64,000 nt of DNA from Escherichia coli (GTDB taxonomy: Bacteria > Pseudomonadota > Gammaproteobacteria > Enterobacterales > Enterobacteriaceae), in the NCBI RefSeq assembly GCF_030013595.1, contig NZ_CP122768.1. One strand, given 5' to 3'. The position numbers were made by a program, and so were the translations under genes. The notes below the pieces were generated by a model that did no database searches, was not told the origin of the DNA, and saw only the letters and a program-made list of their open reading frames with translations. Positions 1-53,006 of this stretch are shown piece by piece; the first letter of the stretch is position 1; each line of letters starts with the position of its first letter.

Positions 1-370
1 AATTGCCCGTATCGCCGTCATCTTAATTTTCATTATTTTTGGTTTTCCCAAAATGATGGGCTTTGACGGTACGGTCCAATATATGGCCTCGCTGGGCGCG
101 CCGATGCCGATGCTGGCAGCTATTATTGCGGTAGTTATGGAAGTGCCCGCCGCGATATTAATCGTGCTTGGCTTTTTCACCCGTCCGCTGGCGGTGCTGT
201 TTATTTTCTACACGCTGGGTACGGCGGTGATTGGTCACCATTACTGGGATATGACCGGCGATGCGGTTGGGCCAAATATGATTAATTTCTGGAAGAATGT
301 CAGTATCGCTGGCGCATTCCTGCTGTTGGCAATTACCGGGCCGGGGGCAATTTCTCTCGATCGGCGTTAG
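1..370 (+). CDS. DoxX-family inner-membrane protein (YphA-like), C-terminal part; N-terminus lies upstream of the window
   Basis: ORF 53..370 is in frame with the window start; hydrophobic helices and the [10 protein letters not shown]...[15 protein letters not shown] region are typical of DoxX proteins. Family call is from memory. Confidence 0.55.
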
Positions 371-45860: not shown

Positions 45861-46652
45861 ATGGGTAAACTCACGGGCAAGACAGCACTGATTACGGGCG
45901 CATTGCAGGGAATTGGCGAAGGAATTGCCAGAACTTTTGCGCGTCATGGCGCAAACCTAATCTTGCTGGATATCTCCCCTGAGATCGAAAAGCTGGCGGA
46001 CGAACTGTGTGGTCGTGGTCATCGCTGTACGGCGGTTGTCGCCGATGTGCGTGACCCGGCGTCGGTCGCCGCAGCTATCAAGCGCGCGAAGGAAAAAGAA
46101 GGGCGCATTGATATCCTGGTGAATAACGCAGGCGTTTGTCGTCTGGGCAGTTTCCTCGATATGAGCGATGAAGATCGCGATTTCCATATTGATATCAATA
46201 TTAAAGGCGTATGGAACGTCACGAAGGCGGTGCTGCCGGAGATGATTGCCCGCAAAGATGGTCGCATTGTGATGATGTCTTCAGTCACTGGCGATATGGT
46301 GGCCGATCCGGGTGAAACGGCGTATGCCTTAACGAAAGCGGCGATTGTTGGCCTGACTAAATCGCTGGCGGTGGAGTACGCGCAGTCTGGTATTCGCGTT
46401 AACGCCATCTGCCCGGGATACGTACGCACGCCAATGGCGGAAAGCATTGCCCGCCAGTCGAACCCGGAAGATCCAGAATCGGTGCTGACTGAAATGGCAA
46501 AAGCAATCCCGATGCGTCGCCTCGCCGATCCGCTGGAAGTCGGCGAACTGGCAGCCTTCCTCGCATCGGATGAATCAAGTTATTTAACCGGTACACAGAA
46601 TGTGATTGATGGCGGCAGCACACTGCCGGAGACGGTTAGCGTCGGCATCTGA
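45861..46652 (+). CDS. ucpA: Short-chain dehydrogenase/reductase UcpA
   Basis: 263 aa from MGKLTGKTALITGALQGIGEG.... Confidence 0.85.
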   Translation: MGKLTGKTALITGALQGIGEGIARTFARHGANLILLDISPEIEKLADELCGRGHRCTAVVADVRDPASVAAAIKRAKEKEGRIDILVNNAGVCRLGSFLDMSDEDRDFHIDINIKGVWNVTKAVLPEMIARKDGRIVMMSSVTGDMVADPGETAYALTKAAIVGLTKSLAVEYAQSGIRVNAICPGYVRTPMAESIARQSNPEDPESVLTEMAKAIPMRRLADPLEVGELAAFLASDESSYLTGTQNVIDGGSTLPETVSVGI

Positions 46653-46665
46653 TTCACCTCTGTTT

Positions 46666-46697
46666 CCTCCCTGCATTTGTGGGGAGGATTTCGTCTT
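46666..46697 (+). terminator. Probable terminator after ucpA
   Basis: CCTCCCtgcatttgtGGGGAGG followed by a U-rich tract (atttcgtctt). Confidence 0.5.
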
Positions 46698-48672: not shown

Positions 48673-49547
48673 TGGCGGAAGTGACACAGTTGAAGCGTTA
48701 TGACGCGCGCCCGATTAACTGGGGCAAATGGTTTCTGATTGGCATCGGGATGCTGGTTTCGGCGTTCATCCTGCTGGTGCCGATGATTTACATCTTCGTG
48801 CAGGCGTTCAGCAAAGGGCTGATGCCGGTTTTACAGAATCTGGCCGATCCGGACATGCTGCACGCCATCTGGCTGACGGTGATGATTGCGCTGATTGCCG
48901 TGCCGGTGAACCTGGTGTTCGGCATTCTGCTGGCCTGGCTGGTGACGCGCTTTAACTTCCCCGGACGCCAGTTGCTGCTGACGCTGCTGGATATTCCGTT
49001 TGCCGTATCGCCGGTGGTTGCCGGTCTGGTGTATCTGCTGTTTTACGGCTCTAACGGCCCGCTCGGTGGCTGGCTGGATGAACATAATCTGCAAATTATG
49101 TTCTCCTGGCCGGGAATGGTGCTGGTCACCATCTTCGTGACGTGTCCGTTTGTGGTGCGTGAGCTGGTGCCGGTGATGTTAAGCCAGGGCAGCCAGGAAG
49201 ACGAAGCGGCAATTTTGCTTGGCGCGTCTGGCTGGCAGATGTTTCGCCGCGTCACGCTGCCGAACATCCGCTGGGCGCTGCTTTATGGCGTGGTGCTGAC
49301 CAACGCCCGCGCGATTGGCGAGTTTGGTGCGGTGTCGGTGGTTTCCGGCTCGATTCGCGGCGAAACACTTTCGCTGCCGTTACAGATTGAATTGCTGGAG
49401 CAGGACTACAACACCGTCGGCTCCTTTACCGCTGCCGCGTTGTTGACGCTGATGGCGATTATCACCCTGTTTTTAAAGAGTATGTTGCAGTGGCGTCTGG
49501 AGAATCAGGAAAAACGCGCGCAGCAGGAGGAACATCATGAGCATTGA
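48672..49547 (+). CDS. cysW: Sulfate/thiosulfate ABC transporter permease CysW
   Basis: 291 aa. Confidence 0.9.
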
Positions 49548-50634
49548 GATTGCCAATATTAAGAAGTCTTTTGGTCGCACCCAGGTGCTGAACGATATCT
49601 CACTGGATATTCCTTCTGGTCAGATGGTCGCATTGCTGGGGCCGTCTGGTTCCGGGAAAACCACGCTGCTGCGGATTATCGCCGGGCTGGAGCATCAAAC
49701 CAGCGGGCATATTCGCTTCCACGGCACCGACGTCAGCCGCCTGCATGCGCGCGATCGTAAAGTTGGTTTCGTGTTCCAGCACTATGCGCTGTTCCGCCAT
49801 ATGACGGTGTTCGACAATATCGCTTTCGGCCTGACGGTGCTGCCGCGTCGCGAGCGCCCGAATGCCGCAGCCATCAAAGCGAAAGTGACAAACTTGCTGG
49901 AGATGGTGCAGCTTGCGCATCTGGCGGATCGTTATCCGGCACAGCTTTCCGGCGGGCAGAAACAGCGCGTGGCGCTGGCGCGTGCGCTGGCTGTAGAACC
50001 GCAAATTCTGCTGCTTGATGAACCGTTTGGCGCGCTGGATGCGCAGGTGCGTAAAGAGCTGCGTCGCTGGTTGCGTCAACTGCATGAAGAACTGAAATTT
50101 ACCAGCGTATTCGTGACCCATGACCAGGAAGAAGCGACCGAAGTAGCCGATCGTGTAGTGGTGATGAGCCAGGGCAATATCGAGCAGGCTGATGCGCCGG
50201 ATCAGGTATGGCGCGAACCAGCGACCCGCTTTGTGCTCGAATTTATGGGCGAAGTGAACCGCCTGCAGGGAACCATTCGCGGCGGGCAGTTCCATGTTGG
50301 CGCACATCGCTGGCCGCTGGGCTATACACCTGCGTATCAGGGGCCGGTGGATCTCTTCCTTCGTCCGTGGGAAGTGGATATCAGCCGCCGTACCAGCCTC
50401 GATTCGCCGCTGCCGGTACAGGTACTGGAAGCCAGCCCGAAAGGCCACTACACCCAATTAGTCGTGCAGCCGCTGGGGTGGTACAACGAAGCGCTGACGG
50501 TCGTGATGCACGGCGACGACGCCCCGCAACGTGGCGAGCGTTTATTCGTTGGTCTGCAACATGCGCGGCTGTATAACGGCGACGAGCGTATTGAAACCCG
50601 CGATGAGGAACTTGCTCTCGCACAAAGCGCCTGA
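49537..50634 (+). CDS. cysA: Sulfate/thiosulfate ABC transporter ATPase CysA
   Basis: 365 aa; Walker [13 protein letters not shown] signature [15 protein letters not shown]. Confidence 0.92.
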
Positions 50635-50710
50635 TAGGTTGAGTGAATGTTAAACGCCCGGAGGCGCTTCCCGCGATCCGGGCTTTTTAATGGCAAGGTT
50701 TGTAACCTGT

Positions 50711-50745
50711 AGGCCTGATAAGACGCGCAAGCGTCGCATCAGGCA
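50711..50745. repeat. REP (palindromic unit) element in the cysA-cysM spacer
   Basis: aggcctgataagacgcgcaagcgtcgcatcaggca. Confidence 0.7.
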
Positions 50746-50767
50746 ACACCACGTATGGACAGAGATC

Positions 50768-51679
50768 GTGAGTACATTAGAACAAACAATTGGCAATACG
50801 CCTCTGGTGAAGTTGCAGCGAATGGGGCCGGATAACGGCAGTGAAGTGTGGTTAAAACTGGAAGGCAATAACCCGGCAGGTTCGGTGAAAGATCGTGCGG
50901 CGCTTTCGATGATCGTCGAGGCGGAAAAGCGCGGGGAAATTAAACCGGGTGACGTGCTGATCGAAGCCACCAGTGGTAACACCGGCATTGCGCTGGCAAT
51001 GATTGCCGCGCTTAAAGGCTATCGCATGAAATTGCTGATGCCCGACAACATGAGCCAGGAACGTCGTGCGGCGATGCTGGCATACGGTGCGGAACTGATT
51101 CTTGTCACCAAAGAGCAGGGCATGGAAGGTGCGCGCGATCTGGCGCTGGAGATGGCGAATCGTGGTGAAGGAAAGCTGCTCGATCAGTTCAATAATCCCG
51201 ATAACCCTTACGCCCATTACACCACTACCGGGCCGGAAATCTGGCAGCAAACTGGCGGGCGCATTACCCATTTTGTCTCCAGCATGGGAACAACCGGCAC
51301 CATCACCGGCGTGTCACGCTTTATGCGCGAACAATCCAAACCGGTGACCATTGTCGGCCTGCAACCGGAAGAGGGCAGCAGCATTCCCGGCATTCGCCGC
51401 TGGCCTGCGGAATATCTGCCGGGGATTTTCAACGCTTCGCTGGTGGATGAGGTGCTGGATATTCATCAGCGCGATGCAGAAAACACCATGCGCGAACTGG
51501 CAGTGCGGGAAGGAATATTCTGTGGCGTCAGCTCCGGCGGCGCGGTTGCCGGAGCACTGCGCGTGGCAAAAGCTAACCCCGGCGCGGTGGTTGTGGCGAT
51601 CATCTGCGATCGCGGCGATCGCTACCTCTCCACCGGCGTGTTTGGGGAAGAACACTTTAGCCAGGGGGCGGGGATTTAA
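50768..51679 (+). CDS. cysM: Cysteine synthase B (O-acetylserine sulfhydrylase B)
   Basis: 303 aa from a GTG start (V/M-STLEQTIGNTPLVKLQRMGPDNGSEVWLKLEGNNPAGSVKDR); PLP lysine motif. Confidence 0.88.
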   Translation: MSTLEQTIGNTPLVKLQRMGPDNGSEVWLKLEGNNPAGSVKDRAALSMIVEAEKRGEIKPGDVLIEATSGNTGIALAMIAALKGYRMKLLMPDNMSQERRAAMLAYGAELILVTKEQGMEGARDLALEMANRGEGKLLDQFNNPDNPYAHYTTTGPEIWQQTGGRITHFVSSMGTTGTITGVSRFMREQSKPVTIVGLQPEEGSSIPGIRRWPAEYLPGIFNASLVDEVLDIHQRDAENTMRELAVREGIFCGVSSGGAVAGALRVAKANPGAVVVAIICDRGDRYLSTGVFGEEHFSQGAGI

Positions 51680-51681
51680 GA

Positions 51682-52141
<460 letters not shown>

Positions 52142-52154
52142 GAGAAAAAATTAA

Positions 52155-53006
52155 ATGAGTAGTTTGTTGTTGTTTAACGATAAGAGCAGGGCGCTGCAGG
52201 CGGATATCGTCGCCGTGCAGTCGCAGGTGGTTTACGGCAGCGTGGGCAACAGCATTGCCGTGCCTGCTATCAAACAGAACGGCCTGAATGTCTTTGCCGT
52301 GCCGACGGTATTGCTGAGCAATACGCCGCATTATGACACTTTCTACGGTGGTGCGATTCCGGACGAATGGTTTAGCGGCTATTTGCGTGCGCTTCAGGAG
52401 CGTGATGCGCTGCGCCAACTTCGTGCTGTAACCACGGGCTATATGGGAACGGCATCGCAAATCAAAATCCTTGCCGAGTGGCTGACTGCGCTACGCAAAG
52501 ACCATCCTGACCTATTGATCATGGTCGATCCGGTGATTGGCGATATTGACAGCGGAATTTATGTCAAACCTGACCTTCCCGAGGCGTATCGACAATATTT
52601 ACTGCCGCTGGCGCAGGGAATTACCCCCAATATCTTTGAGCTGGAAATCCTGACCGGTAAAAATTGCCGCGATCTCGACAGTGCCATTGCTGCCGCAAAA
52701 AGTCTGCTTTCAGACACATTAAAATGGGTGGTGATTACCAGCGCCTCCGGTAATGAAGAAAATCAGGAGATGCAGGTGGTGGTGGTGAGTGCCGACAGCG
52801 TGAATGTCATTTCCCATTCACGGGTAAAAACCGACCTGAAAGGGACTGGCGACCTGTTTTGTGCTCAGCTTATCAGTGGTTTGCTGAAAGGGAAGGCGTT
52901 AAACGATGCGGTGCACCGTGCGGGGTTGCGCGTACTGGAAGTGATGCGCTACACCCAGCAGCATGAGAGCGATGAATTGATTTTGCCGCCGTTGGCGGAA
53001 GCATAA
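52155..53006 (+). CDS. pdxK: Pyridoxal/pyridoxine/pyridoxamine kinase
   Basis: 283 aa. Confidence 0.88.

Follow-up and report, generated by a model that had tools for sequence, protein, structure and literature searches.

A conserved hairpin and U-tract between cysA and cysM of Escherichia coli: a candidate leaky intra-operon terminator with a promoter-like motif upstream and a late-arriving REP element downstream

Introduction

Leaky intrinsic terminators inside operons are exemplified in Escherichia coli by the rplL-rpoB attenuator and by rpsU-dnaG T1, where a GC-rich hairpin with a U-tract lies between co-transcribed genes, the downstream gene needs read-through, and two levels of mRNA result. 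At gltI-SroC-gltJKL an intra-operon terminator also releases a small RNA derived from the 3' end. The junction between cysA and cysM, analysed here, shares the layout of the first two systems, and resembles the third in that a terminator-type hairpin stands right after the leading cistrons of a transporter operon, with read-through beyond it. It is unlike rplL-rpoB and rpsU-dnaG T1 in that termination is deduced from sequence and conservation, and we know of no promoter-like motif immediately upstream of the hairpin in either of those systems. Unlike gltI-SroC-gltJKL, the cysA-cysM element has a U-tract of only 5 U, its preceding 15 nt are not conserved between genera, and it has no Rfam match. 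A five-U tract is short for Hfq binding, and a small RNA from the cysA 3' end is therefore unlikely, given also the unconserved candidate seed and the lack of an Rfam match.

For the promoter-like motif, the closest described class is that of galP1, an extended -10 sigma-70 promoter with a weak -35. The candidate upstream of cysM shares with this class a TGn before a hexamer with T-12, A-11 and T-7, and a TTG at 17-nt spacing; it differs in matching 6/12 consensus positions, in overlapping the stop and last codons of cysA, and in being a prediction.

Repetitive extragenic palindromic (REP) elements are defined as imperfect palindromes of 30-40 nt with a mismatched stem and a 5' GTAG tetranucleotide, and 84 of the 584 REPs of K-12 are single (PMC3333891). 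Those between tandem genes are reported to attenuate read-through and stabilise the upstream mRNA, as illustrated by REP325 in yjdMN, which attenuates about 8-10-fold while the upstream gene is stabilised; across 146 REP-containing tandem pairs the expression ratio is biased to the upstream gene, with effects that are large, variable and context-dependent (bioRxiv 10.64898/2026.03.23.713779). Like the elements of malE-malF and hisJ-hisQ (Stern 1984, Newbury 1987, cited in PMC6061677) and of yjdM-REP325-yjdN, the REP between cysA and cysM (REP175) is a GTAG-led extragenic palindrome between genes of the same strand, transcribed within a polycistronic mRNA; a block to 3'-5' exonucleases would be expected, and attenuation is possible. 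It is unlike yjdM-REP325-yjdN, which has several REPs, in being single and part of neither a BIME nor an array. It also differs from all three systems in lying downstream of a separate hairpin and U-tract, an architecture that is conserved without the REP.

Descriptions of operon membership at this locus conflict. The genes cysP-cysU-cysW-cysA-cysM have been listed as one operon (PMC3082872), and cysPUWA and cysM as separate operons (PMC4705995). A Yersinia transcriptome paper reports cysM separately from cysAWTP, and in an engineered Ptrc-cysPUWAM construct cysM is driven by a promoter placed before cysP (PMC10963904).

Results and discussion

The cysA-cysM junction

The window, i.e. the whole stretch of 64,000 nt analysed, derives from E. 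coli. Strain 2012C-4221 matches its segment 50500-50900 with 100% identity, and at least 80% of that segment is covered in 5420 of the 5426 complete genomes of E. coli, with identities almost always between 95 and 100%. The ORF list and RefSeq annotation give the order cysP-cysU(T)-cysW-cysA-cysM on the + strand. The TGA stop of cysA (50632-50634) is directly followed by an in-frame TAG (50635-50637), and a spacer of 133 nt (50635-50767; z = -3.0 for the fold of the whole spacer) separates it from cysM. Both gene boundaries are the same in RefSeq for 2012C-4221 (100% identical) and for K-12. The features of the junction are as follows.

49537-50634, + strand: cysA, ATPase of the sulfate/thiosulfate ABC transporter (ORF list, translation, RefSeq)
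50612-50640, + strand: promoter-like motif, hypothetical (pattern uniqueness, conservation, non-coding context in Rahnella)
50656-50683, + strand: GC-rich hairpin, abutting the T5 run (sequence, folding)
50684-50688, + strand: T5 run, the U-tract of the terminator-like element, abutting the hairpin (sequence, alignment)
50694-50754, + strand: lineage-specific insert of about 61 nt carrying the REP (alignment with Citrobacter, Lelliottia and other spacers, from which the boundaries are deduced)
50709-50745, + strand: single REP, REP175 of K-12 (folding, pattern match, Rfam naRNA4, multi-copy occurrence, published list)
50754-50770, + strand: cysM translation-initiation region, with a weak Shine-Dalgarno-like GGACAGAG and the GTG start at 50768-50770
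50768-51679, + strand: cysM, cysteine synthase B, 303 aa (ORF list, translation, RefSeq)

A reading made from the sequence alone had placed a hairpin and a REP element in this spacer, upstream of a GTG-initiated cysM. Sequence and folding confirm both elements, with exact coordinates, and the GTG start is equally well founded, being aligned to CysM residue 1 in 64 of the 80 loci compared. When the spacer is folded to minimum energy, the initiation region stays unpaired. A longer CysM starting from ATG 50690 (a 329-aa ORF) was rejected, as the extension consists of the REP-bearing insert, which is missing from orthologous spacers of 66-70 nt, and RefSeq uses the GTG instead.

A hairpin and T-run conserved in structure, position and strand

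The hairpin begins 21 nt past the cysA stop codon. Its outer stem of 7 bp, GCCCGGA/TCCGGGC (50656-50662 / 50677-50683), contains six G-C pairs and encloses an internal loop, a 3-bp helix (GCG/CGC) and a 5-nt loop. The folding energy was -19.1 kcal/mol (z = -2.85; 3 of 200 shuffles as stable), with a range of -17.7 to -19.1 across analyses. The element thus combines a GC-rich stem-loop with an abutting U-rich tract on the transcribed strand, which is the sequence definition of an intrinsic terminator; its antisense side presents only GTTTAA, and our own scan called no antisense terminator at the site. That scan, which allows interrupted stems, recovered the E. coli hairpin. A consensus terminator scan restricted to loops of 3-8 nt, with no provision for an internal loop, does not list it. 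Given a U-tract of only five U, followed by AAU, and an interrupted stem, the efficiency of termination could range from low to high.

Within the species the element is close to invariant. The 45-nt segment containing the hairpin is single-copy (median of one place per genome), was found in 5425 of 5426 E. coli genomes, and reaches at least 99% identity in 4759 records. Among seven E. coli and E. albertii sequences, variation is confined to the bulge or loop, or converts the closing G-C pair to G-U together with a longer T-run, the stem being otherwise invariant; E. albertii and some strains have a sixth T in the run. An Rfam scan of 49000-52500 at a permissive E-value returned no riboswitch, leader or small-RNA family, the matches consisting of partial hits to naRNA4 (REP) and noise.

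Conservation across the order was examined in 80 cysM loci from species-representative genomes, from which 58 cysA-cysM spacers of at most 400 nt were extracted. A stable hairpin with a directly following T-run was present on the sense strand of 56 of these 58 orthologous spacers and on the antisense strand of 5, counts which do not represent independent events since the sampled species are related. Among spacers of at most 140 nt, a hairpin with a dG of -12 or lower and a T-run occurred in 45 of 49, compared with 50 of 490 dinucleotide shuffles (10%). The stems themselves belong to at least eight unrelated sequences: GCCCGG and GCCGGG in Enterobacteriaceae, GCGGCC in Cedecea, Siccibacter and Shimwellia, GGGCGGG in Pantoea, GGCAACCC in Serratia, TGCTCATCTC in Photorhabdus, CAGCCTGG in Tatumella, and GGTGGCC. 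Pairing is retained between the GCCCGG/CCGGGC and GCCGGG/CCCGGC variants, and alignment shows the E. coli hairpin to be positionally homologous to those of Citrobacter and Enterobacter. In Enterobacter, Pseudescherichia and others, two REP-like hairpins occur in succession, and a T-run follows only the second. Structure, U-tract and strand have therefore been kept despite turnover of the stem, i.e. the pattern expected of a conserved intrinsic terminator, in which structure and T-run persist at the orthologous position through sequence change.

The association of the hairpin is with cysM. It stays beside this gene where the upstream neighbour is not cysA, namely in Kluyvera and RIT691 (a rhamnosidase gene), Dickeya (a Dyp peroxidase gene), and Enterobacter ENT03 and Rahnella (other genes). 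Outside Enterobacterales, it was absent upstream of cysM in the Pseudomonas, Vibrio and Oceanospirillales loci examined. Furthermore, in 42 of 56 spacers the stem ends at most 40 nt before the cysM start, so that a promoter and leader cannot fit downstream of it. Every cysM transcript in those species must consequently cross the hairpin and U-tract, and a terminator at this position cannot be fully efficient.

A promoter-like motif over the cysA stop codon

We also identified a putative promoter immediately upstream of the hairpin, a motif that had gone unnoticed in the sequence-only reading. It consists of a -35-like TTGCTC (50612-50617), a 17-nt spacer ending in TGA, whereby the cysA stop codon would serve as the 'TGn', and a -10-like TAGGTT (50635-50640). 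The predicted start lies at about 50646-50648, 8-10 nt upstream of the hairpin, which would place the hairpin in the cysM 5' UTR. In E. coli, TTGCTC-N14-TGA-TAGGTT has extended -10 sigma-70 geometry (A-11, T-7, TGn, and TTG at 17 +/- 1 nt). It agrees with 6 of 12 consensus positions plus the TG, below the threshold of at least 9 of 12 used by the promoter scan, which for that reason does not list it. Rahnella (TTGCCA / TAATTT) and Pantoea (TATTTT) match the consensus better.

The pattern TTG-N17-TGnTAnnnT has a sole match in the 64-kb window, where shuffles average 1.65, and it occurs exactly once, on the + strand and shortly upstream of cysM, in 42 Enterobacterales loci. At the 3' end of cysA, 56 of 60 sequences have TGA as their stop; in 45 of the 60, every one with TGA, the bases that immediately follow are TA...T. 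Column statistics over 59 sequences, counted from the first stop base, show positions +3, +4, +7 and +8 to be 81-86% conserved (1.1-1.4 bits), with conservation falling to about 0 bits from +9 onward. The synonymous third position of codon -7, which supplies the middle T of TTG, carries 0.83 bits, compared with 0.05-0.4 at most others. The strongest point for the candidate promoter comes from two Rahnella species, in which this stretch is non-coding and cysA is not a neighbour. They retain TTGCCA-N14-TGT-TAATTT at identical spacing, amid diverged spacer and flanks, and a hairpin with T7 follows it after 17-20 nt, and then cysM. Cedecea and loci with a replaced upstream gene carry TAGACC-N17-TGATA(A/G)nTT.

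Part of the conservation of the motif is forced by coding, through the TGA stop and the (Leu/Val/Ile)-Ala codons. The C before the stop is also strongly conserved (1.43 bits), which the promoter reading does not explain. An alternative -10 element, AATGTT/TATGTT, which would put the start inside the hairpin, was rejected, having neither a -35 nor a TG to pair with it and no conservation beyond Enterobacteriaceae.

REP175 as a lineage-specific insertion

The REP begins with GTAG (50709-50712), directly before GCCTGAT, followed by the 32-nt palindrome GCCTGATAAGACGCGCAAGCGTCGCATCAGGC (50713-50744), which folds into 7 bp, a 2x2 internal loop, 5 bp and a 4-nt loop (dG -23.1, z = -5.6; 0 of 200 shuffles as stable). 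REP175 appears to be of the z2 type. It matches part of the REP-derived Rfam family naRNA4 (E = 2e-4), and, in searches with 28-nt words, queries that contain it match a median of 6 locations in an E. coli genome and as many as 21, the repeated part being 50708-50742 of the window (209-243 of the query). The element accordingly shows the features by which REPs are recognised, i.e. an imperfect, mismatched palindrome of 30-40 nt, a 5' GTAG and many dispersed extragenic copies. The supplement of bioRxiv 10.64898/2026.03.23.713779 lists it as REP175, classed as Tandem, between cysA and cysM at 2539643-2539608 of NC_000913.3, an interval that maps to 50708-50743 of the window. No inverted partner that would make it a BIME was found, the spacer holding one REP and the whole window one match; a y + z2 pair at the same site was seen in one Pseudocitrobacter faecalis record (L004) only. 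Since the segment with the upstream hairpin is single-copy in E. coli, that hairpin is not itself an E. coli REP.

Alignment places the REP within an insert that is flanked by ATGG on either side and lies between the T-run TTTTTAATGG and the cysM ribosome-binding region TATGGACAGAGATC. Orthologous spacers without the insert read GGGCTTTTTTATTGGACAG..GTG, and in Citrobacter, Lelliottia and others the order hairpin-TTTTTTATTGGACAG..-GTG is accommodated within 66-68 nt. E. albertii and E. coli (5420 of 5426 genomes) carry the REP as a fixed element, and most other genera lack it. On these alignments it is a late, lineage-specific insertion, present in E. coli, E. albertii and the one Pseudocitrobacter record. 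Being lineage-specific and downstream of the T-run, it cannot belong to the conserved mechanism. REP-dependent, translation-coupled control, as attributed to Liang et al. in 2015, reportedly needs the REP to lie within about 15 nt of the stop codon. Action through ribosome collision at the stop codon was rejected for REP175, which starts 75-79 nt past the cysA stop.

Expression of cysM relative to cysP

For MG1655 in exponential phase in LB, the listed rows of a DESeq2 table (bioRxiv 10.64898/2026.03.23.713779 supplement) give a baseMean of 893 for cysM and 203 for cysP, with log2 fold changes in the same comparison of 0.25 for cysM and 2.04 (4-fold) for cysP; the two rows, sorted by p-value, apparently belong to one table whose header lies outside the listed part, and cysM is set against cysP alone. 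At face value, the amount of cysM mRNA in LB is about 4 times that of cysP mRNA and does not follow it. A cysM level that exceeds that of cysP and is uncoupled from it cannot be produced by read-through from the cysP promoter alone, and these partial data fit either initiation at an internal promoter or greater stability of the cysM segment, independent of the cysP promoter.

The sequence-only reading had also suggested that the two elements may attenuate or stabilise transcripts and so set the level of cysM apart from that of the transporter genes. For the hairpin this idea gains from its terminator anatomy and from the sense-strand conservation in 56 of 58 spacers. For the REP, the reported effects of such elements between tandem genes count in its favour; the lineage-specific distribution and the position downstream of the T-run keep REP175 out of the conserved mechanism. 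Simple attenuation is also at odds with the listed LB values (893 for cysM above 203 for cysP), and since cysM mRNA is the higher of the two, attenuation is not dominant in setting the cysM level under that condition. The supplement rows listed for Adams 2021, TERMITe 2025 and SMRT-Cappable-seq 2018 included no cysA or cysM entries and no coordinates of the form 25395xx/25396xx, and a full-text literature search combining cysA/cysM with terminator, intergenic or promoter returned nothing specific to E. coli.

A model of the junction and its alternatives

The explanation that we favour, and to which we give about an even chance of being right, combines a leaky intra-operon intrinsic terminator with a probable cysM promoter and an accessory REP. 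The hairpin and U-tract (50656-50688) would act as a conserved leaky terminator at the cysA-cysM junction, at which polymerases from the CysB-controlled cysP promoter partly stop while a fraction continues into cysM. The cysPUWA mRNA would thereby gain a hairpin-protected 3' end, and cysM expression may be further damped by its weak ribosome-binding site and GTG start. In addition, cysM would probably receive CysB-independent transcription from a weak promoter within the last cysA codons and stop (50612-50640). By analogy with REP325 and the genome-wide trend, REP175 might at most present exonucleases with a second obstacle on read-through RNA or mildly attenuate it. A promoter upstream of the hairpin would send its own transcripts into the same terminator, an arrangement that this model leaves unexplained.

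The other explanations retain the same parts and assign them different roles. If the hairpin were mainly an RNA-stability element, the difference between cysA and cysM levels would arise from decay and not from termination: once an endonuclease had cut the A/U-rich RNA that separates the cysA stop from the hairpin, or once transcription had begun at the internal promoter, the stem would protect the 5' end of cysM, and in transcripts cut downstream it would protect the 3' end of cysPUWA. The companionship of hairpin and cysM whatever the upstream gene, and the distance of 3-19 nt from the predicted start site to the hairpin, are consistent with such a role, as are the listed LB values, where cysM mRNA exceeds cysP mRNA as expected of a more stable cysM segment, and the lack of a 3' end at the hairpin among the Term-seq supplement rows listed. 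A U-tract is not required for a protective stem, but 56 of 58 spacers have a T-run abutting their last hairpin, and where two REP-like hairpins are present it follows only the second; the strand bias (56 versus 5) is likewise a terminator signature, and we consider stability as the main function unlikely. A related proposal makes cysM a mini-unit, in which a weak sigma-70 promoter in the last seven cysA codons and stop would fire into the hairpin about 3-19 nt downstream. The hairpin might then be a selective insulator, stopping polymerases that carry a full set of elongation factors 4 kb from the cysP promoter and passing newly initiated ones, which, if true, would give a constitutive floor of cysM with CysB control only damped; alternatively, it might supply both the 3' end of the cysPUWA mRNA and a 5' protective stem for cysM mRNA. 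Our estimate for the mini-unit is somewhat lower, i.e. rather unlikely.

Taking the REP as the functional regulator, in the manner of malE-malF and yjdM-REP325-yjdN, would make it an exonuclease block that stabilises cysPUWA mRNA, or a partly Rho-dependent attenuator ahead of cysM, and would make the hairpin incidental. REP175 is canonical (GTAG, mismatched stem, dG -23) and fixed in 5420 of 5426 E. coli genomes, and precedent exists in the roughly 8-10-fold attenuation and upstream stabilisation by REP325 and in the higher upstream/downstream ratio of tandem pairs. However, it is missing from most other genera, where hairpin, T-run and GTG architecture are kept, it is a single REP without a BIME array, and it lies downstream of the T-run, so that terminated transcripts would never contain it. 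Together with the listed LB rows, in which cysM is not below cysP, and the context dependence of REP effects (bioRxiv 10.64898/2026.03.23.713779), this leaves a REP-centred account improbable. Slightly less credence still attaches to an efficient terminator that would render cysM a fully separate transcription unit, with no cysPUWAM operon. The separate listing of cysPUWA and cysM (PMC4705995), the listed LB values in which cysM and cysP are uncoupled, and the promoter-like motif near cysM would suit such a unit, but the sole conserved promoter-like motif precedes the hairpin, and 42 of 56 spacers leave no room for a promoter after the T-run, so that an efficient terminator would silence cysM. 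Separation is also countered by the listing of cysPUWAM as one operon (PMC3082872) and by the expression of cysM from before cysP in Ptrc-cysPUWAM (PMC10963904). Finally, neither element may be under selection at the site, the hairpin being a decayed REP-like repeat and the REP a neutral passenger. The E. coli hairpin does align with REP-like hairpins (GCCCGGTGGCGCT..GCTTACCGGGCCTAC) of Citrobacter and Enterobacter, and this spacer has received small mobile repeats again and again. Retention of structure, T-run and strand through complete sequence turnover in distant families, and near-invariance of the hairpin in 5425 E. coli genomes with variation in the loop or bulge, make an absence of function highly improbable.

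A partial terminator combined with an internal promoter would yield just such conflicting operon descriptions as those in PMC3082872 and PMC4705995, and our favoured model, if true, would reconcile both views on the operon membership of cysM. The finding is one of ordinary operon fine-tuning at a textbook locus whose REP was already catalogued, and the general understanding of operons is unchanged by it; the conserved order of promoter-like motif, hairpin with U-tract and GTG-initiated cysM is a modest new observation. Compared with the other members of the cysteine regulon, cysteine synthase B follows sulfur status more loosely, and a leaky terminator with an internal promoter would, if true, account for this. 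The locus also shows cleanly, in a natural setting, how a regulatory RNA structure can persist while its sequence is entirely replaced and small mobile repeats enter and leave its surroundings. For engineering of cysPUWAM behind a single promoter, the hairpin is a likely bottleneck for cysM.

Conservation of the cysA 3' end and of sequence upstream of cysM

Two overlapping features were identified at the end of cysA:
50612-50640, + strand: promoter-like motif TTGCTC-N14-TGA-TAGGTT, spanning the final cysA codons and the stop
50629-50637, + strand: cysA end GCC TGA TAG, a tandem in-frame stop by sequence

A pattern search for TTG-N17-TGnTAnnnT across the whole 64 kb window returned the motif at 50612-50640 as its single match, and the same position is occupied by the motif in 42 Enterobacterales loci. 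In Rahnella, the motif is retained in DNA that is non-coding. Were the motif to act as a weak cysM promoter, transcription would be predicted to start 8-10 nt upstream of the terminator-like hairpin in the cysA-cysM spacer (stem-loop 50656-50683, T-run 50684-50688). Within the same region, 56 of 60 species use TGA as the cysA stop; the preceding C is 90% conserved (1.43 bits) despite occupying a synonymous site, a feature that is left unexplained by the promoter reading.

The cysA-like tail was also compared at three loci, from Kluyvera genomosp. 1 (L012, 67-2430 and 2430-2500), Enterobacteriaceae RIT691 (L022) and Enterobacter ENT03 (L019). Pfam matches confirmed an alpha-L-rhamnosidase gene directly upstream of cysM in Kluyvera genomosp. 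1, and the sequence upstream of cysM in RIT691 has the same ending. All three loci retain the tail TAGACC-N17-TGATA(G/A)nTT, which reads GGTAGACCTGA in Kluyvera genomosp. 1 and RIT691, together with the hairpin and T-run. The joint retention of tail, hairpin and T-run suggests that cysM and approximately 90 nt of upstream sequence move as one unit.

Translation start of cysM

GTG was identified as the cysM start codon in 64 of the 80 loci surveyed, as in the window (50768-50770); in the other 16, the protein alignment begins only at residue 2-4, and the codon listed for these rows is consequently not the cysM start. A weak Shine-Dalgarno-like sequence precedes the GTG, and it looks as though a low rate of cysM translation initiation is conserved. 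Directly 3' of the T-run, an ATG in frame with cysM (50690) opens a 329-aa ORF running through the REP into cysM (extension 50690-50767). This longer CysM is almost certainly artefactual: its extra residues would be encoded by the REP-bearing insert, which is missing from the 66-70-nt spacers found in other genera.

Repeat insertions in the cysA-cysM spacer

The insert of approximately 61 nt carrying the REP lies between AATGG (left, 50689-50693) and TATGG (right, 50754-50758), a pair resembling a short target duplication. REP-associated transposases are not known to generate such duplications, and this likeness may therefore be coincidence. In two Yersinia loci (L035 and L041) and in Serratia plymuthica (L052), the spacer is broken by an insert of approximately 130-150 nt with conserved blocks. 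The hairpin GGCAACCCCAGGGTTGCC is present on either side of the S. plymuthica insert, the pattern that a small mobile element entering the spacer at the terminator would leave. The spacer is thus a site at which different small repeats have landed in different genera.

A further arrangement was found in a locus labelled Pseudocitrobacter faecalis DSM 27453 (L004), whose cysA-cysM region is E. coli-like: its CysM is 97% identical, it has an identical hairpin and it shares the insertion site, with a y + z2 REP pair in place of a single REP. The other Pseudocitrobacter record (L003) possesses an Enterobacter-type spacer. Horizontal transfer may account for this, or the record may be misnamed.

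The supplement to a REP preprint (bioRxiv 10.64898/2026.03.23.713779) lists 'NusG minus' and 'NusG plus' peaks at MG1655 2539385-2539613 (+ strand), about 50738-50966 of the window, on the strand opposite the cysM 5' end and overlapping REP175, the catalogued REP of this spacer. From the supplement's entries, these peaks appear to be Rho-related termination regions borrowed from another study.

Boundaries of the cys operon

Three features were located at the operon ends:
46665-46688: terminator-like hairpin TCCTCCCTGC..GTGGGGAGGA, then TTTCGTCTTG, by sequence
51677-51679, + strand: cysM stop (junction 51677-51684)
51682-52050, - strand: yfeK ORF, convergent to cysM

The hairpin lies 13 nt past an ORF ending at 46652, ucpA by its position in K-12, and about 135 nt upstream of cysP (46823); it marks the upstream boundary of the operon. 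Downstream, the 2 nt separating the cysM and yfeK stops in the window hold neither terminator nor REP. K-12 differs, with yfeS and REP174 following cysM. A query across the cysM/yfeK junction was covered to at least 80% in 4038 of 5426 E. coli genomes.
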